Shown one piece after another: positions 12,834 through 45,827 of a DNA stretch of 64,000 nucleotides. Origin of the DNA: a virus; the IMG/VR virus record IMGVR_UViG_3300040801_001133, positions 1 to 64,000 of that record, one strand, 5' to 3'. A program made the translations under genes and the position numbers. Each line of letters begins with the position of its first letter. Position 1 is the first letter of the stretch. The notes under the pieces are model-generated. The model worked only from the letters and a program-made list of their open reading frames with translations, was not told where the DNA came from and searched no databases.

Positions 12834-12837
12834 GAAT

Positions 12838-13254: not shown

Positions 13255-13273
13255 TAATCTTAAAATCAAGTAT

Positions 13274-13306: not shown

Positions 13307-13322
13307 GTCATAATAGTAGATA

Positions 13323-14657: not shown

Positions 14658-14673
14658 TACCTTATATTTGTAA

Positions 14674-15387: not shown

Positions 15388-15390
15388 AAT

Positions 15391-16571: not shown

Positions 16572-17581
16572 TGATAGAAAAATATACTACAATAGATACA
16601 ATTTTAGCTAAATTATCCAGGGACACTGGAAGAGCCTCTATAAATGAATCTGATACAATAGAATGGATAGGAGAGGCCCTCTCTTTTCTAAGTGTTTACC
16701 CTTCTGAAGAACAGGCTATAGCTTTTTTAGAAGTTAAGAATTATGAAGCCCCGCTACCCTTAAATTTACAAACTATACTACAGGTAGCTAGAAATAATCA
16801 CTGGTCTCCTCAGGATAATAATAATCCGTGTGGCTGCCCCCAAAAAGTGGAAGAATATCTTTTAGATGAGGATTGTGAAGATTGTTCGATAATGGTAACA
16901 GATTGTGGAGGGAGCCTTCTTTGTGAGGATTCTAAAATAATTAATAAGCCGTATTTTGACCTTCAATATGGATATTCAAAATGGGTAACTAATCCTTTAT
17001 ACAAACAGGTTTTTACACCAGTTAGACTAGCCAACAACAGCTTTTTTAATACTATTGTATCTAAAGAGAAATCTTTGCCTTACGCAGAAGATAATGGCAT
17101 AGATGAGTACACCATAGTTGGTACTTATGAAAAGATTCTAAGATTTTCTTTTAAAGAAGGTCAGGTTGTAGTCCCTTATACTCGTACAGCTTTGGACAGT
17201 GATACTGGTTATCCCCTTGTTCCTGATAATATCTCTTTAATTACTGCTGTAGTTTATTACGTAAAGTGGAAGATGGCAGAAGTGCTAGAATATAGCGGCA
17301 GAGCAGGTGCTACACAGTTAGCAGAGAAATCAGAACAGAGATGGCTTAAGTATGTTAAGCAAGCTAAGAATAGTTTAAGTATGCCTCAAGGAATTGATAA
17401 ATATCAAAACATGCTTGAGTCTAGTCATCAAATGATACCCAATCATAAAAGATATTATAATTTTTTTGGTAACTTAGGAAGGCCCGATTCAAGAAAATAT
17501 GCTGACCCAGATGGTAGAAATAATAATATACAATATTCTTACAGGGGGGGTAATGTAATAAATCAAGGAAGACATGAATAA
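16571..17581 (+). CDS. hypothetical structural-module protein
   Basis: 336-aa ORF with ATGA-type coupling at both ends. Contains Cys cluster PCGCP...DEDCEDC...DCGGSLLC and a G7 tract at 17544-17550. Confidence 0.5.
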   Translation: MIEKYTTIDTILAKLSRDTGRASINESDTIEWIGEALSFLSVYPSEEQAIAFLEVKNYEAPLPLNLQTILQVARNNHWSPQDNNNPCGCPQKVEEYLLDEDCEDCSIMVTDCGGSLLCEDSKIINKPYFDLQYGYSKWVTNPLYKQVFTPVRLANNSFFNTIVSKEKSLPYAEDNGIDEYTIVGTYEKILRFSFKEGQVVVPYTRTALDSDTGYPLVPDNISLITAVVYYVKWKMAEVLEYSGRAGATQLAEKSEQRWLKYVKQAKNSLSMPQGIDKYQNMLESSHQMIPNHKRYYNFFGNLGRPDSRKYADPDGRNNNIQYSYRGGNVINQGRHE

Positions 17582-23086: not shown

Positions 23087-24604
23087 ATGGAAAAGAAAAG
23101 AAAAAAAATGGCTACTGGTACTGCTGTAAAAGGTTATCTAGAGAATCCTTATCAGGAACTAGCTCAAAACGATATTAATCAAAGACAGGCTCAATTAGAA
23201 GTATCTACTAATCCCTTAGTAAGGGGGTTAGATGTAGTAGGTCAAATGGGAGTACAGTATGGACTAGCTGCTGGTGGATTTGAATCTATTGAAGGTATTG
23301 ATCCTGAAATGGGGGAAGCTGCTAATGGGGCTTTAAGCTTATTATCTGGCCTAAATATGGCAATGGGAGGTAAAGTGCATAATGTCCCTGTTGAAGTAGA
23401 GGGAGAGGAAGTGGCGGAAACTCCCAATAAACAATTGTTAGATTTTAAGGGGCCTTCTCATGAACAAGGGGGTATTGATGTAGACCTTCCAGAAGGAACT
23501 GAAGTATTTTCTAAGAGAATAAAATTAGATGGACAGACTATGGCTGAAAGAAAAAAGAAAAGGGAAAGAACACTAAATAAACTTAGAAAATCTTTGGGAG
23601 AAAATCCTACTAATCAAATTGATAAAAAGACCCTAGAGAGAACCCAGACCAATTTTGATGCTGAGGAGGAGAAGGATAAAATGGTTCAGATGCTTATTAA
23701 AGAAGCTATGGAACCCGCACAAAGAGCTGAACACAAATACGGTAATAGGGTGGGGGGTGATCCTGATCCTTATGCTCACCTACTTCCTAAACAGCCTAAG
23801 CAGTTTACAATGGATTCTAATCAATTACAAAGAATTGAAGGTGATTCATTTCTGGATTATGAAAAGAATATACCACTAGGTTCTACGGAAGTATCAGCTA
23901 GACAACCAGATACTTTTGATAAAATTAAGATGCTACTTAATAAAGTTTCTAATGTAGATATTCCAGAATCTTCAATGCCAACACCAGGAGATGCAGTAGG
24001 TATTGCAGGTAATTTAATGAGCATGTATGGACCATTAAACAATACACTAAGAAATAGGGCAGGAGATACACCTAATATAAATGCCTTTGAAAATTTTGGT
24101 ACTGATGCTATTGACAGTAACCGTCAGGCTATGGAGTATGTAGATGATGTTGAAGATAGACAACTACAGGATTTAGAATTATCTAGGGTGGCACAAACTA
24201 AAAGAAACAGAGGGGGTGCCAAAGGAATTAATACTATGAGGGCACTTGATTTAGCAAGTAATCAAATAGCTGATAATCAAAAATCTCAGGTGAGGTCACA
24301 ATCTGCTAATCAAATGATGCAATTACTTGGCAGAGAATCTCAACTAGAGAACCAAAGAGATAGAATGGTTATGCAAGGGGAATATCAAAGGGATATTGCA
24401 GACAGACAAGACAGAGATGCCTTTTACTCTAATATGGCTCAAAACTTAGTAGGACGAGGAGAAGGAGTACAGCAAATAGGAAAAGAAATTAACCAAATAA
24501 AACAAAGAGAGGTGGTTGAAAACCTTTTAGCAAATCTGTCCAAGTACGGTATTACTGTAGACAAGAAAGGGAATTTAATTCAGAAGAAGAAAGAAAATGA
24601 GTAG
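23087..24604 (+). CDS. internal virion / ejection-type protein (charged, coiled-coil rich)
   Basis: 505-aa ORF rich in Q/E/K/R heptad-like sequence. It lies immediately upstream of the giant cargo genes. No catalytic motif recognised. Confidence 0.45.
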   Translation: MEKKRKKMATGTAVKGYLENPYQELAQNDINQRQAQLEVSTNPLVRGLDVVGQMGVQYGLAAGGFESIEGIDPEMGEAANGALSLLSGLNMAMGGKVHNVPVEVEGEEVAETPNKQLLDFKGPSHEQGGIDVDLPEGTEVFSKRIKLDGQTMAERKKKRERTLNKLRKSLGENPTNQIDKKTLERTQTNFDAEEEKDKMVQMLIKEAMEPAQRAEHKYGNRVGGDPDPYAHLLPKQPKQFTMDSNQLQRIEGDSFLDYEKNIPLGSTEVSARQPDTFDKIKMLLNKVSNVDIPESSMPTPGDAVGIAGNLMSMYGPLNNTLRNRAGDTPNINAFENFGTDAIDSNRQAMEYVDDVEDRQLQDLELSRVAQTKRNRGGAKGINTMRALDLASNQIADNQKSQVRSQSANQMMQLLGRESQLENQRDRMVMQGEYQRDIADRQDRDAFYSNMAQNLVGRGEGVQQIGKEINQIKQREVVENLLANLSKYGITVDKKGNLIQKKKENE

Positions 24605-27026
24605 ATTTTATCAAACAGCAAGGCCCGTATTTGTAGACAATAAAATTTACCAGCCACCCTGGGAGCTTGCACAGAATGTTATTCTTGCTAATGAACAGAG
24701 AGTAGATGCTGCTTTCGCTGAAGCTCAACTAGCTAATGGTGATTTAGGAACCATTAGACATATTGATATGGAATCTGAAAATCAATCTGTTCAGGCTATA
24801 CAACAGAAGTATGGCCAGAGAATAAATGAAATAACAGAAGCCATGAACGGGGATGTTCTTAATTATCAAAAGTATTCTCAAGACCTTGCTAACCTAAGGA
24901 GAGACTTTACTAATGATAGAAACTCTGGTGATATATTTAATATAGAAAGTAGGTATGCTGCTTACCAACAAGATATTCTTGAGAATGAAGAATTAAAAAA
25001 GACGGACCCAGCAGCCTACAATCTTGTATTAAACAAAAGAAGAAGAGAGCTAGAAAAAGCACTAGAAAATGATCCAAAGGCTAGATATAATGCAGGACAA
25101 ATCTACGGTAAGCCTGACGTAACTTCAGAAGATAATGTTAAATTATTTAATGCTATTAAAGCTGATCTTACTAGCGACTTTATGAGAGCACCTGCCCTCA
25201 ATGAGGATGGTACACCTAAACTAGATGAACAAGGTAACCCTATTATGGAAATAGTAACTGATACAGAAGGGAATCCTATGTACAAAGTAAATAATAAGGG
25301 TGTTACAGAACAGGAAGTGCAGTTTATTGCTCTTTCCAAAATGATGGGTGATCCTACACTTCAGGCTTATTCTCAACAAATGGCTGGTTTTGAGGGGTAT
25401 GAAGGCTATGGTGAAGCATTAGTAGACAAAGAGGGGAATATAAATATGAAAAATCCTTTTGGTCTAGAGATAGCTGGTGTTGCTCAGGCTTATGGATTTA
25501 ATGAGTCTGACTTTGAAAGAACCAAAGGTTCGTTAGCATATCAAGAATTTGGTTATGATACTAGAAGATCAACTCAAGACTTTAATGAAGCACTTCATTT
25601 ACAAAATTTAAGAGAAGCTAGAAAAGATGCCAGAATTGGTATGAGAGCAGAAGCTAAAGCCAAGGCATCTAAAACAGTAGATGAAAAATCTGAGAATTTA
25701 ATTTTGGCTTTACCTCAAGATGTTATTACTCCAGAAGAATCTTCAGCCATGTTTGAAACATGGTCTAATCTTGCCCAAAAAAGAGAAGCTGGAACACTCT
25801 TGCCTAGAGAGAAAGCCGACTTAAATAGATTAAGTCTCGCTTTTGAACCCCTAATTGCTAAAGATGGCGATAAAATTCTCACTTCTATAGGTCTTGATCC
25901 TGATGATTATTCTGATAATAGATCAAAGCTTAATGCTTTTCTGAGATTTAAATCTCAAGCTGAAAAATTACAATCTAGAATAAGCGGAGAAAAGAGAAGA
26001 AACAGTTCTTCTCCGCTTGCTGTTGGTATGCCTGGGTCCACCTACTTTAGAAAGGAATCTTTAGCTGATCTATCTTCTTCAGAAAGAGATATACTAGAAA
26101 GAGCAAAGAGTCTAGATGAAGCCTTTGGTGACTTTGATACTTACTTGGCAGAAAATGCAACAGTAACTAGACTTCATATGAATCTAAATCCTGAGACCGA
26201 TGATGGTAAAAGAGTTCTTGGTATTTTAGATCAACATATGAGTGTTTTTGATCCAAGTGTTACTCCTGGTAATTTAACTAGAACAGATGTTACTGGTAGA
26301 AGTAGAGATAATATAAGTGTTACTGTCTATGATAAATATAATCCTAGGTCTCTGGGAGGAAAACAAGTTACCAATCCTTTAAAGAGAGTAATAGGACTAA
26401 TAGATGGTGTTGACAACTTAACTGATCTAGTAGAACAAGGGTATATAATTCCTAATGTTATTCCTACGGACAAAGGAGAAATAAGCGTTTTATGGACTCC
26501 AACGGGCAAAGGTGAGGATATATTTCAAATTGATGGAAGTTTTAGAACTACTCATAGCAATATAGCTAATGAAATATTCCCTGTCAGCACTAATCCAGAA
26601 CAACAGGCCCTACATATTATGGCTAACAAAGGACTTGAGTATAGTGGCATATACAACACTATATCCATGCTTGACAATAAAATGAATAGTGAACAAGATT
26701 ATTTTGAAATGTATCCAGAGGGAAAACCTTTTGCAGTCCCACACTTACAAAACAGTGAAGTGAGTTATAGATATAACCCCGATGGGGGCTTTACTTTAAC
26801 TAGTCATAACTTTATGGCCCCCGGCAACAAATCTAAATATACTGTTACCGCAGAAGATTTACAGGCAACAGCAGAAAGAATAGCAGAAAGTACGGGCAAA
26901 TCTCTGACAGAAATTAAGTTAGACAAGAAATCTATATTGACTGAAATACTTACTAATCATATACAACACATAGATAGTTTTATGGAATTTGACCAAATAG
27001 AAAATACAGATGAGCAGCAAGAATAA
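24597..27026 (+). CDS. internal virion / cargo-type protein
   Basis: 809-aa ORF that overlaps its neighbours by 8 and 17 nt, suggesting translational coupling. No motif recognised. Confidence 0.45.
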   Translation: MSRFYQTARPVFVDNKIYQPPWELAQNVILANEQRVDAAFAEAQLANGDLGTIRHIDMESENQSVQAIQQKYGQRINEITEAMNGDVLNYQKYSQDLANLRRDFTNDRNSGDIFNIESRYAAYQQDILENEELKKTDPAAYNLVLNKRRRELEKALENDPKARYNAGQIYGKPDVTSEDNVKLFNAIKADLTSDFMRAPALNEDGTPKLDEQGNPIMEIVTDTEGNPMYKVNNKGVTEQEVQFIALSKMMGDPTLQAYSQQMAGFEGYEGYGEALVDKEGNINMKNPFGLEIAGVAQAYGFNESDFERTKGSLAYQEFGYDTRRSTQDFNEALHLQNLREARKDARIGMRAEAKAKASKTVDEKSENLILALPQDVITPEESSAMFETWSNLAQKREAGTLLPREKADLNRLSLAFEPLIAKDGDKILTSIGLDPDDYSDNRSKLNAFLRFKSQAEKLQSRISGEKRRNSSSPLAVGMPGSTYFRKESLADLSSSERDILERAKSLDEAFGDFDTYLAENATVTRLHMNLNPETDDGKRVLGILDQHMSVFDPSVTPGNLTRTDVTGRSRDNISVTVYDKYNPRSLGGKQVTNPLKRVIGLIDGVDNLTDLVEQGYIIPNVIPTDKGEISVLWTPTGKGEDIFQIDGSFRTTHSNIANEIFPVSTNPEQQALHIMANKGLEYSGIYNTISMLDNKMNSEQDYFEMYPEGKPFAVPHLQNSEVSYRYNPDGGFTLTSHNFMAPGNKSKYTVTAEDLQATAERIAESTGKSLTEIKLDKKSILTEILTNHIQHIDSFMEFDQIENTDEQQE

Positions 27027-30000
27027 TATACTCGATCAGGCTGTTCAAAGTACGCTTACTGGGGGACCGGGTAAACCTAAGAAGCCCAGTATTTTAGATC
27101 GTATTGATGAAGAGACTCTTAATAATATGGAAATTGCTGCACCTGTAACTCAACTGCAAAGAGGTGTTAGTGTAGATAATTTAGATGAAGCCAGGAGATT
27201 AGGAATGAACCCTAATCTTCAGAGAGGAGGCATGAATATAGATCAGCTTCTTGGAGCAGCTCAACCTACTTCTGAAAAATTTAATAGATTACTTATTGGG
27301 GGTGCTGTACAGTTTGCTGCTGGATTCTTAGATAACTTAAATTATGATCTTCCTGATATGACTTCTATGTTAGTAGGTCAAGAAAAAGAATATGGTTCTT
27401 GGCTTACTGATATTACAGGTAAAATGAAAGATTATGCTGAAGAGTATAAGATATATGAAGATGGCGGGGGCTATGGTAGTATGTCTTACTGGTTAAAACA
27501 AGGACAAAATTTAGCCTATTCTGCTGGGTTGGCTGCATCTGCCATAACAGAGCAGACAGTATTTACAGCATTAAGTGGGGCAACAGGAGGTTCTACTGCT
27601 CCATTACAAGGTATGAAAGCCTATAGAAGTGGACAACTAATTAAGGGTGCTCTATTCGGTGGCTGGAAAGGTATTCAGGAAGGACACTTAAATGGTATTG
27701 AAACCTATAAAAGTGTATACGAAGGTTATCTAAGGGAAGGATACACTAAAGAGCAAGCTGTTAAAGCTGCCTCCCGTGCTGCTTCTGTAGGTTACAACAT
27801 GGAGGTTCTTCCTCTAATGGCCCTCAATGCCCTTCAGTTTGGTCTTGTGGCTAAGTACGACCCTTTTGCTAAGGGCAAGTATAAAGGACCTAACCAGGGT
27901 ATTTCAGGTGCAACAGAAGCTGTCACATCACCCTTAACTAAAGGATTAAAGGGTAGAACCAAATCAGGAGTTGACTTCTTAATGCAGGGTTTTTCAGAAG
28001 GTGTAGAAGAAGGATTACAAACTTACTATGGTAAAGTAGGAGAAGATACAGCTAGAAGAGAGGATAAAATCAAATTTGGGGAATTTGAATATATGGATCA
28101 AGAAATGATTGATTCAGTTATTGGTGGTGTAATGGGTGGTTTCTTATTTGGTGCAATGGGTAAACTATCCAATAGAGCTAACAAAAAAGCTGGTGATGCC
28201 TCTTTAGGAAGAAAGTATGACAGGTTCTTAAACAATGTAGCTGTAAGGGTAGAAAAAGATATTGCTGAACTAGATGAAGCATATAAAGAAAATAATAAAG
28301 AAAAAGTAAAAGATATAAGAGCTAGAATGGAAATGGCTTCTGTTTCCGAGGCTCTCCAGTTAGATTATATGAAGGATTCAACTACAGCATTTGATTCTTA
28401 CATAAAAACCCTTGAGTCTCAAAAAGAAGCTGCACAAGACCCAGAACAAAAGAATAGAATACAGAGTGCAATTGATAATGCCAACCTGTACAGAACAAAA
28501 GCATATACTAATTTAGTAGACTACTCCGATCCACTAGTCGCCTTTGAAATAACTCATAAGCAATTAGCTGTTGATAGAGTATTAGGATTTAAATCTGAGA
28601 AGGAAAGAGAAATTGCAGAGTTCGGTAAGGGGGATAAATACTATGAAAATCTTACTCCCGAAAATAGGGAACGGACTAAAGACTATGTAGAGTTCTTAGC
28701 ACTAAAAGAAGTTGCTGAATCTGGCACTGCTATAACGGAACAGCAAAAGGATAGACTAGTAGAGTTGAACGATCAATTCAAAGATTACAGAAAAACATCT
28801 AAAGCTAATATGTCCGCTCTAGATGCCAACACTTTTGGTAAACTATTTGAATTACAGGTGGATAAAAACCTGTATGAGTCTCAACTAATTGATTTAAATG
28901 ATGCAATTAATTACTGGAATAACCCCAAGAATATCCAGAAGGAAAAAGAAAGAAGATTTAAGGAAAAGGCTGAAAAGGCCCTTGCAGACGATAAAGACTT
29001 AACTAAAGAAGAAGCACAAAAAGTAGAAGAAGACTTGTCTAAAGAGGGACTATTAGATGAAGAGACCCAAAATAAGATAGACAAGAAAAAGGCTCAGGCC
29101 GAAGCTAAAAAAGCTAAGGAAACCAGAGATGAAAAGAATGCAGCACAACAAAGCACTGTAGACTTAATGAATATGTTTGCTCCTGATCCTGAAGAAAGTC
29201 AAAGACAGCAAAGAGTAAGACAAAAGAAACAGGCATCCAACAAAATTGCAGATGCCGTACTACCATCAAGCTTTGAGGATATTGAAGCCCAGGAGTCAGC
29301 AGCAAAAATGGATGATATAGACCCCAGATATGCAGATATGTTTGCTTCACCCTTTGGACAAGTTGAATATTCTGAGGACCAACAAAATAAACTAAAATCT
29401 GGTGTCAAAGACTACTATGAAAATCTAGAAGTTGAACTTGGCAGACCTCCTACCTTTGATGAATTTATTGAAGATTATGTGGCTTTTAATCATAAGGATA
29501 CAGCTAAAAGAGCTTATCAAGCTCTTATTAAAGGTTGGGAATTAAATAACTATAAGCCAACTAACTACAATAAAGTATACAGAACCCGTTTATCTGACAG
29601 ACAACAGTTAGCTGATGTACTTACCAGTACATTAAAAGATGCTGTAAACACTCAAGAGAATACGGCTAAAGAAGCTGATAAGAGTATAGAAAGTGTAGAA
29701 AGAGAAGAAACTAGACCTACTCTTGATGAAAATACTAAACCAGAAGATTATAACGATCTTATTGATGGGCCAACACAACTTTCTACTGTATCCGTAGAAC
29801 CTAAATTTGATATGTCTTTAAGAGCTTATGAAGATAACTCATATATAAATGAAAATGGAGTAAAGGTTAGAAACCTTGAGAGCATAGACACTAATCTACA
29901 AGAAAATGAACTTACTCCTGAAGCCAAAAATCTATTAAGGGCTGATTTTGCCCTAGAAGAAGATGAGTTTACAGTCAGGGTTGCAACAGAAGAAGAGCTA

Positions 30001-33000
30001 GAAAAAATGTATGTCCGTCTTTGGGAAGGTCAAAACGGAGAATTTTCTGAAAAATTACCTTGGTCAGAATGGATTGCTAAAAATAAAGTCACAGAGGATG
30101 ATCCACTCTACTTTTCTAAGGTTCCAATGCTTATTGTAAATCCTGCAACTGGAAAAGCTGTAGCTTTTGTTCGGGATGTGGAATGGTATACAAGATATAA
30201 TTTTGGATTAAAAGGAGACTCTAGTCAGGAAGCCATGATTGAGGAAGCTAGAGCAAAAACCATGAAGGTTAGAAAAGCTGTAGTTGAGTCGGGTGGTATA
30301 CACACTGTAAAAGTGACCAATAAAAGAATTGGCAAAGATTCTTTTGTAAAGTATGAGGATAATAAATTAGTACCAATATTTGAAAATAATCCACAAACTG
30401 CTTTAGGGTACTGGAATGGTACTAAATTTATTACCGATAAAGGTGAATTTTATGAAGATACTGTTTCTATTCATGAAGGTGGATTTGATACGGGTCATAT
30501 CTATGAAATTAGAAGAAGTAATGTACCGGATAGACATATAGCATTTAAGCCTCACTATGGTGAAATAGGACAAGACGTACAACATTCTCTATATAATGCT
30601 GCTATGATATTCTTGGACTATAATAAAGTATTTCAGGAAGAAGCTGAGGCTTTCAAAAAAGCATCTGGTATTGATTTAAATACACTAGACGGATTAATCA
30701 CCCATTTCAAAAACTTTGTCAGAATAGATACTAGATTTAAGAATGATATTATTCCAGGCAATAACTATGGAGAAGTAGAGCAAAATGCCAATGAATACTA
30801 CTCAACGGATCAAGGGTTTGAGGGAGGAACTCCTTATATATTTACTCAAAAAGTTGGTAAAAAGATAGGTATATATTTTGGTGTGGTTGGTGTATTGAAT
30901 GATAATGGCAAACAAACCCAAAAATTATTTAGTAATAATTCACAGATCAAGTCAGAGTTTACTTATTTTCTTAGTCAAATGAAGGTTAACATTAACGAGA
31001 GAATGTTAACTGATGATGCTCAGATGGTTCTTATGGACAGTCAAATGAACAGTTATACTTCTAAAAAGAAGTATAAGGATTATGCAGCAGAGAGAATAAG
31101 AACTAATGTTAAGTCATTTAATGTAGGAACTGAAACTAACCCTTACTACGTAACTTCTGTGGTTCCTGTTGTAGAGTATGAACTATCAAATACAGTAGCC
31201 AGGGATGTAGAATCAGGAAATATATCTACTGAAACAGTAGAAAAAGTTTCTGATAAGATTTCTAAAAGCCAACCACTCAATCCTACAGAGGAAGAGGTAG
31301 TTAATGCTAAGCCTAAAGAGGTTGCTGAGGTAGTGGAACAAAAGGCAGAAGATACCGCCAAGGAAGTTATAGAACAGGACACAGAAGACGCGCCTACAGA
31401 GATACCACAAGAAGCTTTAACGGCTCTTAGAAATGCCTACAAGCTATTTGAAGAAAATGGTAATGTAAATGGTCAGGAAGCTATTAGAGCAAAGGTTAGA
31501 CAATTAGGAGGCAAGATAGATGAAGAAGGGTTCTTTTCTCCTTCACAGAAGATTGATCCTATGCAACAGGAAGCAAGCAGGACATTATTTGGTGATCTGT
31601 TTGGTCTTACTATTTTACAAAATAGTGATATAGTAAAGGCTGTGTATAATAAATTAGCCACAAAATTTGATTTTAAGAAGGGCACAGTTATTACTCAGGA
31701 AGAACTGTTAAAATCTACTGATGAGAGTGTTAGAGATAACGTTTTTATCAAAGGCATGGAGAAGCAAGAAGCGGCCATTAAATCTTTGGAAGAAGCTTAT
31801 TCTGTGTTTCCTGATGAATCTGTGGCTGAACTTATCGAAGAAGCTAAAAATACCCTGGTCAACTATCATCGGGTAATTGATAATTGGACTAATAAACAAA
31901 ATACGGGTATTAGAGACCAAGCTTTTAAGTTATTGAAGAAGTGGACTACTGGTAGTGAAGGAAGTGTTGACACTAGAGATGAAATAAATGTAGACGATCA
32001 GATAGGGGAACTGGATGTAGAAACTGATCAAATATATAGTAAAACCTCATTAGAAGAGTGGGGAAAAGATAATTCTTCATACAGACTTAGGAGATTCTTG
32101 AATGGAATTATTGAGACCACTCATGTTGTCAGAAAGGATGGTAAAATAATTAAGGATGTCACAGTATCTTATGATGTTGAGGCTGGTCTAGTTGCCTATG
32201 ATACTAATAATAAACTTATTAGGGGAGCTGAAATTGAGTCTAAAATACAGAAAGGCTATTTAGGAGTAAATAGATATGTAGGATTTAATAAGGCTTATGA
32301 TATTATTAAGGAAACACTTAATTCTCCCAGTCAATCTCCCTCAACTGTGGAGGATGTTATTTCTAGATTAGCAGAACATACTGTGGCTAATCCTTGGCTA
32401 GTACAAGTTATAGAAAGACTTAAAAGTGATCAAACTGATTCCAGAATACCGCAGGAAATGGTATATAATATGGTAGATCACAATGCTTCTTATAAGTTTG
32501 TAATGTTTGAGAAGAAGAAGAATGGTACTTATAGACTATCTGTATATGACTCTAATGCAGGGGATATTGTAAGGGTAATTAGAAATAGATGGAAAGAAAA
32601 TCTTAAAAGCAATAAAACTGAACTCACTTATGTAAATGAGGAAGGTCAATACATGCTTAGGCACAGTAAGCTTAAAGAATTAGTGCAGCAGTACGAAACT
32701 GAGTTTGTACCTAAATTACGAGCTGCTAAAGCTAAAAATAATAAGGGGGCTAAAGCAGATATATCTATTAAAGCTATGAGTAATTGGCTTGCGCAAATGG
32801 GTATAGAAGTTAGCGATAAAACTCTTATTGATGTTAAGAAAAGAGGTATGTGGGTAGGTTCAGATAATAAACCAGTAACGTTTAATAATCTTTTTGTCAC
32901 CCCTAAAGGAAAGAAAAACCAAACAAAAACAGCAGGCCTGTTTGGTGCTCTATATAATACACTTAATCAACTAGCCTCTAGGGGGCAAGACCTAGAATTT

Positions 33001-36000
33001 ATTGAAGAACCGAAAAATAGTCCTATTGGTGACATTGGCAATATTGGTGATTCCCTAGCCAGAATAGAATCTAGATATAATCTATATACTACAACCAAGA
33101 CATTTAGAGATGGAGGTAAGAGTTTCTCAGGGTTTATTGCACCCACACATTCTACTGAAACTATAGATAAATTAAAACAAGATGAAGAGTTTAGGAATCA
33201 ATTAAAGAATAAAGTATTTAATCGTCACTCTTACATTCTTAAAATGATTGATAAAAACTATAAGCTCAGGGACAAGATTAGTATTTCTCAGCTAGGTAAT
33301 ACTGCTATTAAAGAAAAAGGAGCTTCTATTTATGGCAAAAACTCAATCACTGATTTACCTGATGCTGATCATGAGGGTGTCAAATTGGGGATGTTTATGG
33401 ATAAGAATCAGGGTGCGTCTTTTGATGTACATAGCTCTGTAGGATTTGGCAGAGACTATATTAAGACTAGAATGGCTAGAATGTTCGTACCTACTATGTC
33501 AGATAAGTCTCGTATGTCTTTACTCCATATACCAGTTCTTGATGTTACCAGTAAACATATTGATCTTGAAAATAACAGACTAGATGACGGTTTACTAGAT
33601 ATTATTTATTCTCAGATGGTTAAACCTGAACTTGACAGAATAGTAAAATATCATAAAGATAAAAAGAGAACTAATATTAAGGGGTATGACCATGCAGCCA
33701 AGATGTTTAATTTCTTACCAAGCATCAATAATATTGAGCATGAAGGACAATCTATTCTACTTCACCTAGAAGAGAACTCAGGTAAGTACACAACTGAATA
33801 TGTGGAAGAGGTACTCATGGAGCAAATTAGAGATAAAATCAATGAGTATATATTTAATGAGATAAGCAGAAAAATTAAGTTAAGTCAAGACGGAATAAAA
33901 GAGGGTGATTGGGTAACTGCTGGTTTCTTAGGAAGAAATGAAAATAACGATGAGGTTATTCAATTTCTGGATGAAACATATATGTCTCAATACTCAGGAG
34001 ATATATATACCAAGCTTAGAATGGCTGCTGCTGATTTTGTAATCAACAGTAATATTACTAATGCTAATACTCATATGCTTTTATCGGGAGATATAGCATT
34101 GTATGGTAAAAATTCAACTAAAGAGTATTTTAAAGATGGGGAAGTGTATCTTCCTAATAAAGAGAAATTTGGTGAAGATGTATATCAATTACATGCCAAA
34201 GAGCTAGGAACTAATTTAGGTAAAAGACTAGCTAATCAAGTGGCTCCCGGCAGAAAATTAGCTATGAAAAAGAATGAAAAATACATTCAGTTATATCTAA
34301 ACGATTTCTTTGATCATTCTACTAACATCACAATGCTTGCATCTAAGTTAGATAAAAAGGAATTATCCAATTCAGATTTACAATTGATTAGAGAAATCAA
34401 CGCCAATGCTAATGGAGATGGGACCTTAACACAAGGACAAAAAGATAAGTATAAAAATCTTAAGAAAAGATTTCCCAATACGGCTCCTTACTTTGAATTA
34501 GAATCTACTGATGCTCAAGAGTATACAACTGCATCTGAACACCTTAGAGTATTATGGGGTCAGGGTAGATTAGACAAAGACACTCATACTAAGCTAAAGA
34601 ACAAGATTAAAAAACAGAGAAAAGCTGAGAGAAATAATGATCCTATTCCTGATGATGCTAAGTTCGATCATGAAGAATTAACATTATTTTTTCAACCAAT
34701 GAAACCTGTATACACTGGTTTTATTAATGACGAAGTGAACGGGGTAATGAGAACTGTTTACATTAAATCTTCTTCTATTCCACTATTGCCTCAAGTAACT
34801 TCAGGTTTAGAGATAGATGGTTTAAGGAAACTAATGGAAGGTTACGAGAATGATTCTGGGTTAAAGGTCAGGGCTTCTTATGAATCTGCTAATAAAGTGG
34901 GAGCTAATACTAATGCAATACACGTCTTTGATAAGAATGGTAAGTTTAATTCAAGATTACTGAATGGTATTGGGGAAGAAGCTAAAAAGGAGAGAAACCG
35001 CGAAGTTAAACATGCCTTAGATGAGGCTGTACTTGTACTAAATAGAGAATCATTCAAGATTCAGCAGGATGTACCATTTAAATTAGATAAGAATGAAGTT
35101 ACATTAGGTACTCAAACTCTTAAGTTACTATTTGGTAACGGGGTAACTGAAATGGAAGGATTCTCATTTAGAGGCAATGATAATGTTTCTGGTAAAGAAT
35201 TAAGAGACAGATTTAATAAATTGTTTAATGATTATATTTCTGATAAGAGATTAGCTCTTCTTGAAGAATTAGGAATGAACACAGATGGTACAGCCAAGGA
35301 CCCAGTCCGTACCAAAAAGAAAATACAGAAACTCTTAAAAAAAGAAGCCGAAGAAAGAGGCTATCCAAGACAAGATATTGAAGCTCTTAAATTAACAGAA
35401 GTTAGAAATTCTCAGGGTAGAATAATAGACTATAAATTCAAGTTACCACCCTGGATTTCTCCTAATTCTAATAAGTATGAATCTTTACTAAATTCTATTA
35501 TTAATAGTAGAACAGTAAAGATGAAGATGCCTGGAACCTCTTATGTAGTTGCTTCTGAAGCAGGATTTCAAAGAAAAGCCAATATTAGTAATAAGGAAGT
35601 ACAATCCAGAATTATCTATACGGATAAATGGGAAGGTAAATTAAAAGCTGCTGATTTAGAATATTATACTAACAACGAAGGTAAGCAGAAAAAAAGGGTA
35701 AAAAGTGTTCAAGTATTAGCTCCGTCTAAGTTCAGAGATATTAATGGGGAATTAGTAAAACTGATACTAGATAATGGAGAACCTAATCCTCTATACGTAG
35801 AAAAAGATGAAAACGGTGTACTTAGGTTAAAAGAGGGTATGTTAGAGAGTGGAATGAAAGATATGTTTACTTTCCGTATTCCTACCTCTTCTCATGTGTC
35901 CATGTCTAAGGTAGAAATAGTCGGTTTCCTTCCTCCTGAAGTTGGTAATATGCTTATTGTACCTAAAAACTTAACTCAGCAAAAGGGTCTTGACTTTGAT

Positions 36001-39000
36001 ATTGATAAGGAGACGGCTTACTATAATCATACTTATGTAACTGGTACGGGTAAGATTGTACCTTTTGGTGGTAAGGAATGGCAAATAGATGCTGATATAG
36101 TTCAGGAAAAGTTTGATATAATTGAAGAATTATATCAAGAGAATAAAGACTTATTAAAAGATGAGCAAACTCTTACTGATCTTTATTTAAATGCCATAGA
36201 AAATGGAACCGTAAAGGAGTCAGTTCTATACAAGAAAAGATTAGATGAAGTTAAATCTTTAAAATCAACAGATTTAACCCAAGATGACTACTTTGCTGCA
36301 CGTAAAGAATATGAAAAATTTCACGGTACTAAAGCTAAACAAAAAGTAATGGAGAATGAAATGGTGGACATACATATGTCTGTCATTTCAAATGAACAGA
36401 TGTTTGAGAAAGTAAATAAGGTTCTTTCTATGGCATCAGCTAAGGAACAATCCATAGCTATTTCAAGCCAAGCAGAGAGCGATTCATTGGCTAACTTTAG
36501 TATTTTATCTGATACTTATCAGAAAAGTAAGATGGCCTTAGGTTCATCAGGTAAGCTTGGTATTGGTGTATATTCTAACTTTGTTGTATTAAATTCTCAA
36601 ATACAACAGACTGACTCAGATCATTATTTACAGTATACAAAGGAAGATGGTACCACTGAAAACTTTAATTTCAATATTGGTGGTATTAAATCTGATGGTA
36701 GAATTTCTAATAGTCAAACACTAGGTACTATTAAAAGAGACATTGCTGACGTATTAGCTGAAAGGCAAAATACTGCTACTGATAATGAAAAGGAACAAAT
36801 CATGGGTAGGGTTAACATCAACTCTCAAACCATTAACTTCGATGTTGTAATGATTCTGTTGGGGTATGATAAAACTCCTATGCATTATGTAAAATACTTT
36901 AATGAAGAAACTGGGCAGCAGGAAGAAAGATACTTTGAGACTCAAAAGGAAAAGCAAGATCACATAAAAAAAGTAAAGAAAGACCAAAAAGGTCTAATTA
37001 GAATTTCTAAAGATTATAGTGAATTATCTATCCCTTATGCCTTTACCTCTCAACCTATTATTAGGGAGTATACAGAAATGATGAAGGCTGGTAAGTCCAA
37101 ATTTCAAGAATACAATCCTTCACTCGAAACTGATGTGATTGGGTACCTGATGGACAAATATAATTTTGATGAAGACATAGACCCTAAAGACTTAGATGCT
37201 AAACTTACAGGAGAGACCTTGTTTAGGAACTTATCTAAGCCAGAGGATAGGATACAAACAAGAATACTACAGCTCTTCCAGATTATTAATGGACAAGCTA
37301 AAGAGCTTTCTGAATTACAGAAGGTACTTAATATTAATAATGGAGGACTTGGTAGATCATTCTTTGATGTAATAGAGAAATATGATAACCTGGCTAAAGG
37401 AGGTTTTGGGGGTCAGAACTTGTCTAATAGAGATGATCTTATTGGAGATATTCTCTATTTTAGTGAGGAGCAGTTAGAGGGTGGAGAGTCATTTGATGAT
37501 CTGTTAGAGCAGAGAACTAAGGACGGTTACTTCTACTTTCAGGACAGATATTCTACTGAGATAAGAAAAGGCACATTTGTTAAACCTACTACTCCTAGTA
37601 GCTCTATGCTTATCCAGAGTATACACACAGGTTACAATCTATGGAAAGATTACTATCCCTACTCTTCCGTTAATGTATCTATGCAAATAGATAACATTAG
37701 AGAAAATATCTTAGGTAAAAGAGAATTATCCAGTCAAAAGAAATCTGAGGTTAATCAGGAGATTTTTGCTGAGATGAGAAAGTATCTATTGGCTTCTAGT
37801 AAGTTTGGTTTATTTACTGGGGATATTCAAAAGAAGAGGGCCAAGCTATTTTTTGATACAAAAGAAAACACATCTTTAGCTCAATTCCTTAAAGATAAAA
37901 TGTTAACAGATGAAAGGTTACAGAATAACAAACTACTGTCGAGATTTGAATTTAAGTTAGAGAGTAATGGTTTACCTTCTCTTATTAAGTATGACAATAC
38001 TCAGAATGAAGATTTTGATGAGGACTATCTTTATATTGCTTTACTAGAGTTAATGCAAGAAGACAGAAGCCTTGGAGAATATCAGGGTAGAGAGTATACT
38101 ACTAAAGATTTAGCCAAAGACCTGGTTACTTATTCTTACTTAGGAGAACCTGTACAAGAAGCTATTCAATTCTTACGTTATATTCCTATTTCATACCTAG
38201 AATCTGTAGGATTTTCAGATAATGCAGCTAAAATGGATGAAAAAATTCGTCCGGGTATATTTGATACTCTACTAGGAAAAAAGAGATTTGCTGAACAATA
38301 TGCTCAGCATAATGCTGGTAAGCTAACCAAAATTGATCTTGATGCTTCTTATATATCTAATAAAGAGTATGGTGTTAAGAAATCTAAGGAGTCTTTAATG
38401 TCCTTTAGTGTTAACTATATGGCAGACAGTATGACAGAGGGCTTAGCTAAGAAACTAGATGGAAAGAGTTATGTCACCTTCTACAATAAGAATCTTAAAA
38501 AAGGAACTCAGAAGTATCAAGTATATAAGGCAATAAGAAATAGTCTCGGTACTATAACTCATTATCAAAGAATATCTGTACTTGGAGTACATGGGTTGTC
38601 AGAGTATCAGCTAACTCGTGATACAGCACCTAGAGAGTCATTGGTTAACCCCATATATAAAAAGACCTCACCTAAACCTATTCCTGCTACCCCTGAACCC
38701 GAGAATAACAAAACCCTTACTTTGGGTCAGGAGGTGGAGTCTCTTTCTAAATCTACAGATATTCCTACTGAATTACAAGAATTAGCTAAAGTCCTTTTAC
38801 CTAAAATAGATACTTCTATTAATATAGAAGAAGTTTACTTTGCTTCTAAATTCCCTAAATACAGTGCAGATGAAGGGGTATATCAATCGGAGGAACACAA
38901 AATATATCTTAATAAAGGGAATCCCGTTAATGCTACTAAAGCTGGTAGAGCCAGAGTGTTATTACATGAGGTAGTTCATGCCTTAACTGTTAGACATGTA

Positions 39001-39666
39001 TTCCCCTATATTAAAAAAGATGGTAAAGCTACTATAAAATTAGGACCAGATGGCAAAAGTAAAGAAGTTAGTCCAGAAATAGTAGGTCTTATCAGAGTGT
39101 TTAAAGAAGCTAGAGCTTCATTTGATTCTGCTGTATTGGATTCAATGGAATCTAGTATTGAGTCCGGGACTTCATTTAGTTCTAATGAAGCTAGAATGGC
39201 TTATGGTGTAAAGGATATTTATGAGTTTATGAGTATGCTTACTACGGATAAAGAATTTAGAGATAGAATGTCTAAAATTCCTTACAAGAATACTAATAAG
39301 TCAATATGGGAGAAATTTATTGATTCTATTAGAAGAATTATAGGTAATATTACGGGGATAGAACCTAATAGTATTGCTATGGAGGGTATTGGTTTGACTT
39401 TAGAAATAGTTGAACAACAATCTAAAACAGCAAAGAACTTGTTTGATATAATGGAGGATAATGTACAAGCTACTTTAGACTTGTTATCTGAGGCCACTCC
39501 TGACAATCCCATGCCAGGAATAACTGCTGTACAAACTGATGAGAAGCCTATTGATGATAGTTATGATGAAAAGGATGTATATGAGTCTAGAACTAATACT
39601 GTTATGACCAGTTCTCAATTGATTGCCTTTGAAGAATATAAGGAGACACTAGAAAAAGAATGCTAA
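27010..39666 (+). CDS. giant (4218 aa) virion cargo protein containing a two-barrel-type RNA polymerase catalytic DPBB (DFDID) and a C-terminal HExxH
   Basis: FRIPTSSHVSMSKVEIVGFLPPEVGNMLIVPKNLTQQKGLDFDIDKE (nt 35872-36012) parallels RNAP beta-prime NRAPTLHRLG...NADFDGD. HEVVH lies at nt 38965-38979. The N-terminal region has Gly-zipper hydrophobic segments (VIGGVMGGFLFGAMG). Confidence 0.7.
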   Translation: MSSKNNILDQAVQSTLTGGPGKPKKPSILDRIDEETLNNMEIAAPVTQLQRGVSVDNLDEARRLGMNPNLQRGGMNIDQLLGAAQPTSEKFNRLLIGGAVQFAAGFLDNLNYDLPDMTSMLVGQEKEYGSWLTDITGKMKDYAEEYKIYEDGGGYGSMSYWLKQGQNLAYSAGLAASAITEQTVFTALSGATGGSTAPLQGMKAYRSGQLIKGALFGGWKGIQEGHLNGIETYKSVYEGYLREGYTKEQAVKAASRAASVGYNMEVLPLMALNALQFGLVAKYDPFAKGKYKGPNQGISGATEAVTSPLTKGLKGRTKSGVDFLMQGFSEGVEEGLQTYYGKVGEDTARREDKIKFGEFEYMDQEMIDSVIGGVMGGFLFGAMGKLSNRANKKAGDASLGRKYDRFLNNVAVRVEKDIAELDEAYKENNKEKVKDIRARMEMASVSEALQLDYMKDSTTAFDSYIKTLESQKEAAQDPEQKNRIQSAIDNANLYRTKAYTNLVDYSDPLVAFEITHKQLAVDRVLGFKSEKEREIAEFGKGDKYYENLTPENRERTKDYVEFLALKEVAESGTAITEQQKDRLVELNDQFKDYRKTSKANMSALDANTFGKLFELQVDKNLYESQLIDLNDAINYWNNPKNIQKEKERRFKEKAEKALADDKDLTKEEAQKVEEDLSKEGLLDEETQNKIDKKKAQAEAKKAKETRDEKNAAQQSTVDLMNMFAPDPEESQRQQRVRQKKQASNKIADAVLPSSFEDIEAQESAAKMDDIDPRYADMFASPFGQVEYSEDQQNKLKSGVKDYYENLEVELGRPPTFDEFIEDYVAFNHKDTAKRAYQALIKGWELNNYKPTNYNKVYRTRLSDRQQLADVLTSTLKDAVNTQENTAKEADKSIESVEREETRPTLDENTKPEDYNDLIDGPTQLSTVSVEPKFDMSLRAYEDNSYINENGVKVRNLESIDTNLQENELTPEAKNLLRADFALEEDEFTVRVATEEELEKMYVRLWEGQNGEFSEKLPWSEWIAKNKVTEDDPLYFSKVPMLIVNPATGKAVAFVRDVEWYTRYNFGLKGDSSQEAMIEEARAKTMKVRKAVVESGGIHTVKVTNKRIGKDSFVKYEDNKLVPIFENNPQTALGYWNGTKFITDKGEFYEDTVSIHEGGFDTGHIYEIRRSNVPDRHIAFKPHYGEIGQDVQHSLYNAAMIFLDYNKVFQEEAEAFKKASGIDLNTLDGLITHFKNFVRIDTRFKNDIIPGNNYGEVEQNANEYYSTDQGFEGGTPYIFTQKVGKKIGIYFGVVGVLNDNGKQTQKLFSNNSQIKSEFTYFLSQMKVNINERMLTDDAQMVLMDSQMNSYTSKKKYKDYAAERIRTNVKSFNVGTETNPYYVTSVVPVVEYELSNTVARDVESGNISTETVEKVSDKISKSQPLNPTEEEVVNAKPKEVAEVVEQKAEDTAKEVIEQDTEDAPTEIPQEALTALRNAYKLFEENGNVNGQEAIRAKVRQLGGKIDEEGFFSPSQKIDPMQQEASRTLFGDLFGLTILQNSDIVKAVYNKLATKFDFKKGTVITQEELLKSTDESVRDNVFIKGMEKQEAAIKSLEEAYSVFPDESVAELIEEAKNTLVNYHRVIDNWTNKQNTGIRDQAFKLLKKWTTGSEGSVDTRDEINVDDQIGELDVETDQIYSKTSLEEWGKDNSSYRLRRFLNGIIETTHVVRKDGKIIKDVTVSYDVEAGLVAYDTNNKLIRGAEIESKIQKGYLGVNRYVGFNKAYDIIKETLNSPSQSPSTVEDVISRLAEHTVANPWLVQVIERLKSDQTDSRIPQEMVYNMVDHNASYKFVMFEKKKNGTYRLSVYDSNAGDIVRVIRNRWKENLKSNKTELTYVNEEGQYMLRHSKLKELVQQYETEFVPKLRAAKAKNNKGAKADISIKAMSNWLAQMGIEVSDKTLIDVKKRGMWVGSDNKPVTFNNLFVTPKGKKNQTKTAGLFGALYNTLNQLASRGQDLEFIEEPKNSPIGDIGNIGDSLARIESRYNLYTTTKTFRDGGKSFSGFIAPTHSTETIDKLKQDEEFRNQLKNKVFNRHSYILKMIDKNYKLRDKISISQLGNTAIKEKGASIYGKNSITDLPDADHEGVKLGMFMDKNQGASFDVHSSVGFGRDYIKTRMARMFVPTMSDKSRMSLLHIPVLDVTSKHIDLENNRLDDGLLDIIYSQMVKPELDRIVKYHKDKKRTNIKGYDHAAKMFNFLPSINNIEHEGQSILLHLEENSGKYTTEYVEEVLMEQIRDKINEYIFNEISRKIKLSQDGIKEGDWVTAGFLGRNENNDEVIQFLDETYMSQYSGDIYTKLRMAAADFVINSNITNANTHMLLSGDIALYGKNSTKEYFKDGEVYLPNKEKFGEDVYQLHAKELGTNLGKRLANQVAPGRKLAMKKNEKYIQLYLNDFFDHSTNITMLASKLDKKELSNSDLQLIREINANANGDGTLTQGQKDKYKNLKKRFPNTAPYFELESTDAQEYTTASEHLRVLWGQGRLDKDTHTKLKNKIKKQRKAERNNDPIPDDAKFDHEELTLFFQPMKPVYTGFINDEVNGVMRTVYIKSSSIPLLPQVTSGLEIDGLRKLMEGYENDSGLKVRASYESANKVGANTNAIHVFDKNGKFNSRLLNGIGEEAKKERNREVKHALDEAVLVLNRESFKIQQDVPFKLDKNEVTLGTQTLKLLFGNGVTEMEGFSFRGNDNVSGKELRDRFNKLFNDYISDKRLALLEELGMNTDGTAKDPVRTKKKIQKLLKKEAEERGYPRQDIEALKLTEVRNSQGRIIDYKFKLPPWISPNSNKYESLLNSIINSRTVKMKMPGTSYVVASEAGFQRKANISNKEVQSRIIYTDKWEGKLKAADLEYYTNNEGKQKKRVKSVQVLAPSKFRDINGELVKLILDNGEPNPLYVEKDENGVLRLKEGMLESGMKDMFTFRIPTSSHVSMSKVEIVGFLPPEVGNMLIVPKNLTQQKGLDFDIDKETAYYNHTYVTGTGKIVPFGGKEWQIDADIVQEKFDIIEELYQENKDLLKDEQTLTDLYLNAIENGTVKESVLYKKRLDEVKSLKSTDLTQDDYFAARKEYEKFHGTKAKQKVMENEMVDIHMSVISNEQMFEKVNKVLSMASAKEQSIAISSQAESDSLANFSILSDTYQKSKMALGSSGKLGIGVYSNFVVLNSQIQQTDSDHYLQYTKEDGTTENFNFNIGGIKSDGRISNSQTLGTIKRDIADVLAERQNTATDNEKEQIMGRVNINSQTINFDVVMILLGYDKTPMHYVKYFNEETGQQEERYFETQKEKQDHIKKVKKDQKGLIRISKDYSELSIPYAFTSQPIIREYTEMMKAGKSKFQEYNPSLETDVIGYLMDKYNFDEDIDPKDLDAKLTGETLFRNLSKPEDRIQTRILQLFQIINGQAKELSELQKVLNINNGGLGRSFFDVIEKYDNLAKGGFGGQNLSNRDDLIGDILYFSEEQLEGGESFDDLLEQRTKDGYFYFQDRYSTEIRKGTFVKPTTPSSSMLIQSIHTGYNLWKDYYPYSSVNVSMQIDNIRENILGKRELSSQKKSEVNQEIFAEMRKYLLASSKFGLFTGDIQKKRAKLFFDTKENTSLAQFLKDKMLTDERLQNNKLLSRFEFKLESNGLPSLIKYDNTQNEDFDEDYLYIALLELMQEDRSLGEYQGREYTTKDLAKDLVTYSYLGEPVQEAIQFLRYIPISYLESVGFSDNAAKMDEKIRPGIFDTLLGKKRFAEQYAQHNAGKLTKIDLDASYISNKEYGVKKSKESLMSFSVNYMADSMTEGLAKKLDGKSYVTFYNKNLKKGTQKYQVYKAIRNSLGTITHYQRISVLGVHGLSEYQLTRDTAPRESLVNPIYKKTSPKPIPATPEPENNKTLTLGQEVESLSKSTDIPTELQELAKVLLPKIDTSINIEEVYFASKFPKYSADEGVYQSEEHKIYLNKGNPVNATKAGRARVLLHEVVHALTVRHVFPYIKKDGKATIKLGPDGKSKEVSPEIVGLIRVFKEARASFDSAVLDSMESSIESGTSFSSNEARMAYGVKDIYEFMSMLTTDKEFRDRMSKIPYKNTNKSIWEKFIDSIRRIIGNITGIEPNSIAMEGIGLTLEIVEQQSKTAKNLFDIMEDNVQATLDLLSEATPDNPMPGITAVQTDEKPIDDSYDEKDVYESRTNTVMTSSQLIAFEEYKETLEKEC

Positions 39667-44740: not shown

Positions 44741-45247
44741 TTAAATATTTGTACTTCCATAAGCCCCAGTTCCTCTTACTGTCTCAGTAATTGGAATACT
44801 ATCAGCTTGATTAACAAATGTATGCACTAATTGTGCAATTTTCTCCCCCTTAGTTAATTCGGCTAGATAAGGAGTACAATTAATTATTATTACTCCTATC
44901 TCCCCCCTAAAGTCTGAGTCAATGGTTCCAACACCATTACCTACTATAAGCCCTCTTTTAAGAGGTACAGAACCCCTTGACCTCACTTGTAATTCAGTCT
45001 CTTCCTGTAAGGAATTAACATAAATACCAGTACCCAAAAGCACCCTTTCAAACCCACGTAATTTAAACCTCCCCTGATTAAAAGATTCTCTAATTAGTCC
45101 CATTTTTTCAGGTGAAAGTTCAATATTGCCTTTAAACATCTTTTTAATGCTCATAGCTTGAACATCAAAGCCAGCAGAACCTTTAGTTTCATAATGAGGA
45201 GTATCTATTCCCTCATCATAAGTTAAATTTAAATCTAAGCCTTCCAT
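44741..45247 (-). CDS. dut: dUTP diphosphatase (trimeric dUTPase)
   Basis: GSAGFDV, VRSRGS, GVGTIDSDFRGEIGVIIIN (IDxDYRGE-like) and RGTGAYGST (C-terminal RG..GFGST-like motif V). Confidence 0.85.
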   Translation of the reverse strand: MEGLDLNLTYDEGIDTPHYETKGSAGFDVQAMSIKKMFKGNIELSPEKMGLIRESFNQGRFKLRGFERVLLGTGIYVNSLQEETELQVRSRGSVPLKRGLIVGNGVGTIDSDFRGEIGVIIINCTPYLAELTKGEKIAQLVHTFVNQADSIPITETVRGTGAYGSTNI

Positions 45248-45804: not shown

Positions 45805-45827
45805 ACTCACAGATAAATTGGTTCGGT

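Follow-up and report, generated by a model that had tools for sequence, protein, structure and literature searches.

The 64,000-nucleotide (nt) stretch analysed here (positions 1 to 64,000 of the IMG/VR virus record IMGVR_UViG_3300040801_001133, hereafter the window) contains a giant open reading frame (ORF) of 4218 amino acids (aa), which very probably encodes a virion protein of a crAss-related, FpV4-like Bacteroidota phage. Its central ~2400 residues are best read as a single-chain, two-barrel DNA-dependent RNA polymerase (RNAP) orthologous to gp66 of phage phi14:2, accompanied by two accessory modules. Homology, predicted fold, motif conservation, synteny and modular boundaries all lead to this assignment. 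The ORF starts with ATG and encodes an N-terminal module, the two-barrel RNAP and a zincin-like module in one frame (27010..39666, plus strand, as are all features within it), and the 3' end of the preceding 809-aa ORF overlaps its start by 17 nt. Since base-composition arithmetic gives roughly 7% stop codons for a random frame at ~34% GC, 4218 open codons are beyond chance, and the frame is uninterrupted, as was claimed in the original prediction, a model's note made from the letters of the window alone.

A PHROGs scan of the giant ORF matched one family, phrog_16227 ('virion structural protein', E 1e-266). Megablast of the window against ~50,000 phage records returned no nucleotide match and the giant ORF is 30-43% identical to its nearest relatives; judged from sequence, the window therefore appears to represent a new, divergent phage lineage. 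No called gene on record corresponds to the full giant ORF, and an independent JGI metagenome contig carries a truncated copy with identical 3' 3179 codons.

The polymerase core

The gp66-like virion RNAP (vRNAP) module occupies residues ~1500-3875 (31507..38634). In a MAFFT mapping, gp66 residue 1 falls at ORF residue ~1500 and gp66 residue 2180 at ~3900, and BLASTP aligned ORF residues 2012-3285 with gp66 513-1639 (E 2e-25 in a small database), a segment that takes in the Connector with the barrels on either side of it as well as the bridge helix and trigger loop. The phi14:2 protein has the locus tag gp077 (2180 aa), corresponds to gp66 of Drobysheva et al. and is represented by PDB entry 6VR4. 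According to these authors, gp66 comprises 2180 residues with the motif 1361-DFDID-1365 and shows Mg-dependent RNAP activity, for which none of the three motif Asp can be spared. The giant ORF is 1.93 times as long (4218 vs 2180 aa), close to the twofold length given in the original prediction. BLASTP also aligned ORF residues 1533-4138 with ALN97145 of phage FpV4. When the ~50,000 phage records were searched by tblastn, the matches formed three groups. The FpV4/Fpv/FPSV phages of Flavobacterium psychrophilum are ~32% identical over 2000 aa; crAss001 gp50 and its relatives, which bear the annotation 'putative RNA polymerase', match more weakly than these, and phi14:2 is the third group.

The peptide quoted in the original prediction, FRIPTSSHVSMSKVEIVGFLPPEVGNMLIVPKNLTQQKGLDFDIDKE, is the exact translation of nt 35872-36012 and includes the putative catalytic motif DFDID at residues 2995-2999 (35992..36006), which aligns with 1361-DFDID-1365 of gp66. 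The giant ORF contains three DxDxD strings, at residues 2995, 3387 and 3668, and only that at 2995 matches the motif position of the homologues. The motif blocks read YRIPNQG...GSDFDIDK in gp66, YRVPTED...GSDFDVDK in crAss001 gp50, FRTPTSS...GLDYDIDK in FpV4 and FRIPTSS...GLDFDIDK in the window. An alignment of 23 RNAP sequences, with homologues diverged to about 20% identity, retained D2501, K2565, K2586, K2629, R2956, P2958, S2964, D2995, D2997, D2999 and K3000 without exception. The proposed metal triad D2995/D2997/D2999 is thus invariant in this set. Such invariance, in the Asp triad as well as in K3000 and the lysines of the upstream barrel, points to purifying selection on catalysis.

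Upstream of the motif, a beta-like double-psi barrel region was delimited at residues ~2490-2679 (34477..35046) by the conserved blocks TDAQEY, QPMKPV, YIKSS and ANKVGA, which lie directly upstream of the Connector equivalent (residues 2680-2845, 35047..35544, mapped from gp66 1095-1238). The beta-prime-like double-psi barrel region follows at residues ~2846-3010 (35545..36039), includes FRIPTSS and was placed by alignment and by an AlphaFold2 model. Further downstream, the bridge-helix equivalent maps to residues 3167-3197 (36508..36600, from gp66 1529-1559) and the trigger-loop equivalent to residues 3244-3282 (36739..36855, from gp66 1598-1636). The AlphaFold2 model of residues 2401-3400 has a predicted local distance difference test score (pLDDT) of 80.6 and a predicted template modelling score of 0.80. 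It shows beta-strands at model residues 164-192, 219-230 and 274-287, within the region of the beta-like barrel, and one long helix at model residues 768-800, corresponding to ORF residues 3168-3200, where the bridge helix maps.

Foldseek comparison of this core model with the PDB returned 6VR4 chain A (E 1.4e-31, probability 1.00, ~1026 columns, query-normalised template modelling score 0.59), QDE-1 (probability 1.00, E about 1e-3, about 9% identity) and, as weak matches, Pol I, Pol II and bacterial RNAP with their largest subunits. The BFVD search gave 56 significant matches, and all named ones are large crAss-like phage proteins. No T7-like single-subunit RNAP domain was found in the giant ORF by Pfam, and Foldseek with the core gave two-barrel RNAPs only. 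Thus, the crAss-type two-barrel RNAP that had been postulated from the letters alone is borne out by the BLASTP match to gp66, the invariant triad and the Foldseek match to 6VR4. The checks proposed along with it gave agreeing results: the model resembles known two-barrel RNAPs (6VR4 and QDE-1), a conserved region with the invariant residues D2501, K2565, K2586 and K2629 adjoins the Connector equivalent, and the triad is conserved among homologues, with the signature also present in most of the giant relatives described below. Alignment and model together place a predicted second, beta-like barrel upstream of the Connector equivalent.

Accessory modules and linkers

The N-terminal module comprises residues 1 to about 1436 (27010..31317), was delimited by phmmer and a profile, and is encoded by a separate gene in some relatives. 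It contains Gly-rich hydrophobic segments at residues ~90-390 (27277..28179), for example VIGGVMGGFLFGAMG at residues 366-384, and G373 is nearly invariant. A charged stretch at residues 611-752 (28840..29265) is rich in Lys and Glu. The module is separated from the RNAP by an acidic low-complexity linker at residues 1437-1470 (31318..31419), just before the part collinear with gp66, and a Pro-rich linker at residues 3876-3911 (38635..38742) lies where the gp66 C-terminus maps. The two linkers coincide with both module boundaries. Together with the HExxH motif at 3986-3990, these segments are the Gly-rich hydrophobic, K/E-rich and HExxH elements that had been described as flanking the polymerase.

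A word-index protein search with residues 1-1100 found nothing; the index had missed relatives of more than 3000 aa. Exhaustive phmmer searching with the N-terminal module recovered 124 representative clusters, including 63 of 3460-5383 aa that are collinear from their own N-termini. The N-terminal profile matched a separate 1878-aa protein in the related locus L009 (E 6e-58), and in the related locus L008 the match was distributed over a 1226-aa protein and the start of a 2859-aa RNAP gene. The module has no Pfam match and no sequence similarity to PDB entries. Its putative role is membrane insertion or anchoring during ejection.

The C-terminal zincin-like module occupies residues ~3926-4195 (38785..39594) and was defined by alignment and profile. 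Its sequence LLHEVVHALTV at residue 3986 resembles LILHEIMHDFTV at residue 245 of phi14:2 gp076, the gp65 of Drobysheva et al., to which that paper ascribes a Zincin-like domain. The 28 modules that were aligned follow the pattern hHExxHxxT, 80-100 aa, YxxxNxxEFxA and KSxLxKF, and H3986, E3987, H3990, Y4065, E4072 and F4073 are invariant in 14 sequences and likewise in 20. E4072 is the probable third metal ligand. The HExxH motif lies 845-1078 residues past DxDxD in the same chain in the closer relatives. A profile built without gp65 matched gp65 residues 201-375 (E 6e-15). Because the N-terminal part of gp65 matches the module while the ORF downstream of the giant ORF (1554 aa) matches only the C-terminal part of gp65, the zincin-like module corresponds to the N-terminal module of phi14:2 gp65, with the gene boundary on the opposite side of the module.

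Searched against PDB sequences, the zincin profile also matched 9sfn_G, an 'Internal virion protein' (E 3e-8), residues 2223-2321 of the vRNAP of coliphage N4 (9PNR and related entries, E 8e-5 to 3e-4) and 8vb2_A, PhiM1 gp48 (E 1.6e-4). PhiM1 gp48 is a tetrameric ejection protein that its authors equate with T7 gp16, and CTD-C1, a sub-domain of the C-terminal domain (CTD) of N4 vRNAP, has been published as carrying 'a conserved HExxH motif'. The AlphaFold2 model of the zincin-like module has a core pLDDT of 84-96, and Foldseek gave no significant structural link from it to N4, PhiM1 or 9sfn. The HEAFH string at residue 2157 of crAss001 gp47 was considered as a further copy of the module; the profile gives it no support. 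The C-terminal gluzincin-like HExxH...E module would act in autoprocessing, RNAP activation or encapsidation.

Following gp66 and N4, the protein would be a late product, packaged into the capsid with its activity self-inhibited, and would be ejected with the DNA through the tail and muzzle. It would then transcribe the early genes, with D2995, D2997 and D2999 holding Mg2+ and facing the upstream, lysine-bearing barrel.

Relatives, genomic setting and rival explanations

The signature [FYW]RxP...DxDxD was found at about residue 2260-4260 in 55 of the 63 giant relatives (strict regular expression), and the zincin signature in at least 27. Complete genomes of cultured FpV4-group phages encode a homologue of 4287 aa. 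An all-in-one fusion of this kind had been expected to be unusual; the layout proved standard in the FpV4-like clade, as illustrated by the 63 clusters of 3460-5383 aa. Likewise, the family seemed rare when an early search gave 9 matches, an impression overturned by the exhaustive search with its 124 representatives. The N-terminal, RNAP and zincin modules are separate neighbouring gene products in other crAss-like phages, and fusion and fission at module boundaries are common in the family.

Several relatives depart from the simple layout. The related locus L006 (ENA ERZ25067879 ctg72840, a 303-kb contig) carries at 7788-15655 a ~7.9-kb copy of ORF residues 1278-4146, with 28-46% identity across the aligned pieces and 42% over the main one. 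This copy lacks the N-terminal module, is spread over at least four reading frames and retains an intact DFDID in a 1509-aa ORF (P0001). Its neighbours, typical bacterial genes, encode PFOR, a TPP enzyme, FKBP, MutS, an amidohydrolase and aconitase, and it adjoins a T5orf172/MUG113 gene. Three origins are conceivable for the copy: decay of a phage fragment, frame errors in a low-coverage assembly, or domestication as a stand-alone two-barrel RNAP like YonO. The L007 homologue (ENA ERZ27280276 k141_1494580) is continuous over at least 3742 codons except for one in-frame TAG at 5923-5925, where the window ORF has a Glu; this TAG may reflect a sequencing error, a nonsense mutation, or recoding or read-through as in some crAss-like phages. 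In L009, a GIY-YIG/NUMOD3 homing-endonuclease gene (9340-9999) follows a 639-aa gene directly upstream of the RNAP-plus-zincin gene and possibly marks the site at which the block became divided. Seven relatives of the RNAP protein (P0018, P0019, P0033, P0040, P0044, P0048 and P0055) have extra fused domains, which include helicase (AAA_30/PIF1/UvrD_C), NUDIX, NADAR, cpYpsA (SLOG), ART-PolyVal and DUF7831. The vRNAP chain thus seems to be a carrier for varied effector domains, a 'polyvalent protein' behaviour.

The giant ORF lies in a block whose order is muzzle gene, 505-aa gene, 809-aa gene, 4218-aa ORF and 1554-aa ORF, followed by a strand switch. The muzzle gene (17574..23066, plus strand) encodes an 1830-aa homologue of the Crassvirus muzzle protein (Pfam PF25731 crAss_MUZ, E 1.4e-38), for which the closest phi14:2 match is gp082 (E 2.6e-5). 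The two mid-size genes between it and the giant ORF (23087..27026, plus strand) are syntenic with FpV4 and L008. The downstream 1554-aa ORF (39668..44332, plus strand) is the counterpart of crAss001 gp49 and of the C-terminal portion of phi14:2 gp65. Two hydrophobic helices (1256-1274 and 1356-1374) lie close to its own C-terminus. This order matches those of FpV4, where a 4287-aa gene is followed by a 1596-aa gene, L008, L009 and phi14:2. Phage phi14:2 has separate genes in the order gp082, three mid-size proteins, gp078 (1797 aa), gp077/gp66 (2180 aa) and gp076 (1421 aa), and the phi14:2 homologues were detected in virions by tandem mass spectrometry according to the record notes.

The muzzle protein and the vRNAP block support the earlier claim that the element is crAss-like in a broad sense. 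A stricter reading is doubtful: the closest cultured relatives belong to the genus Fipvunavirus, which the taxonomy line of their NCBI records places outside the order Crassvirales; Yutin 2021 also left Fpv3 outside its five crAss groups. No TerL, portal or MCP was recognised in the window by the Pfam and PHROG libraries, and the lineage with its unrecognisable portal, capsid and terminase genes therefore appears highly divergent.

Five large ORFs (442, 482, 944, 182 and 745 aa) occupy 2957-11351 (plus strand) in the virion block upstream, and the four largest of them have no Pfam or PHROG match. After the strand switch, the opposite strand encodes a dUTPase, a Macro domain protein, a dNMP kinase, an RNA ligase, a metallophosphatase, a GHKL ATPase, a UDG family protein and a Toprim protein. 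The dUTPase (44741-45247), the Macro-domain protein (45235-45810) and the UDG-superfamily protein (57313-58014), all on the minus strand, possibly have counter-defence or nucleotide-sanitising roles. This replication-side block also contains two group I introns (Rfam RF00028) on the minus strand at 61306-61538 and 63404-63641 (70.7 and 113.2 bits), and a GIY-YIG homing-endonuclease ORF (60676-61278, minus strand) directly follows the former.

Several results weigh against the proposed assignment. Pfam gave no match in the giant ORF, and a phmmer search of PDB sequences with residues 1700-4218 missed 6VR4 even at E ≤ 10; because of these two results, the family assignment rests on BLASTP, alignment and structure prediction. 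The phmmer miss is best taken as a sensitivity failure and not as evidence against homology. A negative phmmer result is weak evidence for long, gap-rich homologues of ~22% identity, and BLASTP and Foldseek both found 6VR4. For the zincin-like model, the best Foldseek matches in a library extending to April 2026 had an E of 0.33, with the minigluzincins jannalysin and selecase at a probability of ~0.4; no zincin-type Pfam family scored above threshold, and the SprT-like family gave below-threshold matches in 9 of 14 members. Likewise, two candidate counterparts of the N-terminal module were rejected. Phi14:2 gp078 and crAss001 gp47 have a comparable layout, with Gly-rich hydrophobic segments at ~100-200 and a charged stretch at ~600-900, but neither BLASTP nor a 123-sequence profile detected a relationship, leaving a positional analogy; and a profile search of the PDB for homology to the N-terminal domain (NTD) of N4 vRNAP gave K/E low-complexity noise only. 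Finally, that the protein is packaged, ejected and catalytically active, and what the flanking modules do, is assigned by analogy with gp66 and N4 vRNAP and should be read as expectation.

Two accounts of how the long chain works are about equally rated, each a serious contender that we would nevertheless not bet on by itself. According to one of them, the chain is a polyprotein, and the zincin-like module or another protease cuts the linkers at ~1437-1470 and ~3876-3911, so that the separate proteins of phi14:2 would reappear: an ejection protein from the N-terminal part, an RNAP of gp66 size and a small metallopeptidase. The linkers sit exactly at boundaries between genes that are separate elsewhere, and the HExxH and the downstream Glu are invariant. 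Drobysheva et al. call the fused polyproteins 'likely cleaved' and consider that the Zincin domain may activate the RNAP, and Iyer et al. suggest that the MPTase domains of polyvalent virion proteins serve in autoproteolytic processing. However, the peptidase activity of the module is putative in every phage, recombinant N4 vRNAP with the homologous module gave no evidence of degradation and kept its NTD intact, and the zincin model does not fall significantly among peptidases in Foldseek. The other account draws on N4 and envisages unprocessed 'beads on a string', with a membrane-inserted N-terminal module, a tethered RNAP that refolds in the cytoplasm and an HExxH module acting as a non-proteolytic regulatory or encapsidation domain. 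It agrees with the domain order of N4 vRNAP (NTD, RNAP 1007-2101, CTD-C1 2124-2375), with long flexible linkers like those of N4 and with the zincin profile match to N4 2223-2321; moreover, the N4 region holding the MPTase domain must be present for encapsidation (Iyer et al. 2017) and the N4 CTD autoinhibits the RNAP (2026 N4 paper). Yet the polymerase folds are unrelated, no sequence link joins the N-terminal modules or the downstream ORF and the N4 CTD-C2, and the strict conservation of HExxH and Glu argues for retained metal chemistry.

A catalytically dead relic within a protein that serves as structural or cargo mass only would fit the GenBank and PHROG labels of the homologues, which call them just 'structural protein', and the gp66 crystal, in which the motif adopts a conformation unable to bind Mg. 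We regard this as improbable, as gp66 with the same motif is active and homologues diverged to about 20% identity keep, without exception, the three Asp, the next Lys and the lysines of the barrel. Still less credible is an assembly or frame artefact joining two or three genes, even if the relatives L007, L008 and L009 split the block at differing points and the L006 copy is broken over several frames: 63 independent clusters of at least 3400 aa are collinear from their own N-termini, the 4287-aa homologue occurs in complete genomes of cultured FpV4-group phages, and the JGI contig matches the 3' 3179 codons exactly.

With the giant ORF read as a vRNAP carrying two accessory modules, the window adds a divergent phage lineage to the crAss-type vRNAP family and implies that a polymerase is concealed behind the 'structural protein' labels on the 4000-aa proteins of the FpV4 group. 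With its order of N-terminal module, linker, RNAP, linker and zincin, the modular map offers clean boundaries for expression constructs, and the frequent fusion and fission at these boundaries represent natural experiments on which parts must travel together. The cultured FpV4 phages suit tests of giant-protein cleavage. By linking the crAss zincin with the N4 CTD-C1 and with ejection proteins from further short-tailed phages, the profile points to an ejection module common across podophage families.

Comparison with known systems

Much of this architecture has precedents. The crAss-type vRNAP itself is known from Yutin 2018, as cited, and from Drobysheva et al. 2020/21. Drobysheva et al. 2020/21 also reported neighbouring proteins joined to form one enormous polyprotein and a Zincin domain adjacent to the RNAP, and Iyer et al. 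2017 described a virion RNAP combined with a zincin (MPTase) domain. The crAss-type vRNAP, the fused polyproteins, the adjacent Zincin and the RNAP-plus-MPTase theme are therefore known, and the exact architecture is present in FpV4-group phages as well as dozens of clusters from metagenomes. The new elements, of modest value, are the shift of the zincin boundary and the relationship of this module, at profile level, with N4 CTD-C1 and with ejection proteins from other short-tailed phages.

The phi14:2 gp66 shares with the window protein two double-psi barrels per chain, the Connector, DFD[IV]D with Ile at position 4, the bridge-helix and trigger-loop equivalents and the same position in the virion block. 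The two proteins differ in sequence (about 22% identity) and in length, the window protein being longer by about 1450 N-terminal and about 320 C-terminal residues. In phi14:2, the zincin module forms the N-terminus of the next protein, gp65, whereas in the window it lies at the C-terminus of the giant ORF. The FpV4/Fpv1-3/FPSV group (ALN97145, 4287 aa; PHROG 16227) is closest in design, with the same architecture, size and syntenic neighbours. Its FpV4 protein, annotated merely as a 'structural protein', has DYDID at 3116 and HExxH at 4065 and is 30% identical over window residues 1533-4138. In contrast to this shared layout, the proteins of this group are just 30-32% identical to the window protein, there is no nucleotide-level match and the N-terminal ~750 residues are barely alignable.

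Coliphage N4 gp50 (3500 aa; 9PNR) is likewise a giant ejected virion RNAP with the order NTD, polymerase and HExxH module, and the zincin profile match at 2223-2321 lies inside its published CTD-C1/MPTase region. Its polymerase core, however, is a T7-like single-subunit enzyme, whereas the window core is two-barrel. The NTDs have no detectable similarity, and the HExxH module alone is common to both. The downstream 1554-aa ORF was also considered as a counterpart of N4 CTD-C2, and it gave no significant PDB match. In the view of the 2026 N4 paper, N4 vRNAP and gp66 are 'fundamentally distinct'; the paper leaves open how the three RNAP-associated proteins of crassviruses relate to the N4 NTD, core and CTD. 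As a tentative idea, which we think rather unlikely to hold, the crAss three-protein transcription and ejection block and N4 vRNAP may derive from one ancestral ejection scaffold with a membrane-type N-terminal module, a polymerase and a zincin-like module, in which the polymerase core was exchanged (two-barrel vs T7-like); the giant ORF would then be the single-chain form on the crAss side.

Two further systems resemble the core itself. Neurospora QDE-1 has a single-chain two-barrel core with a Connector, but it is a cellular RNAi enzyme and not a virion protein, and its motif is of the DxDGD type with Gly at position 4. Thermus phage P23-45 is also described as having a two-barrel virion RNAP inside a giant virion protein of 5002 aa; there, in contrast to the window, the RNAP is N-terminal and the fusion partner is a tape-measure protein.

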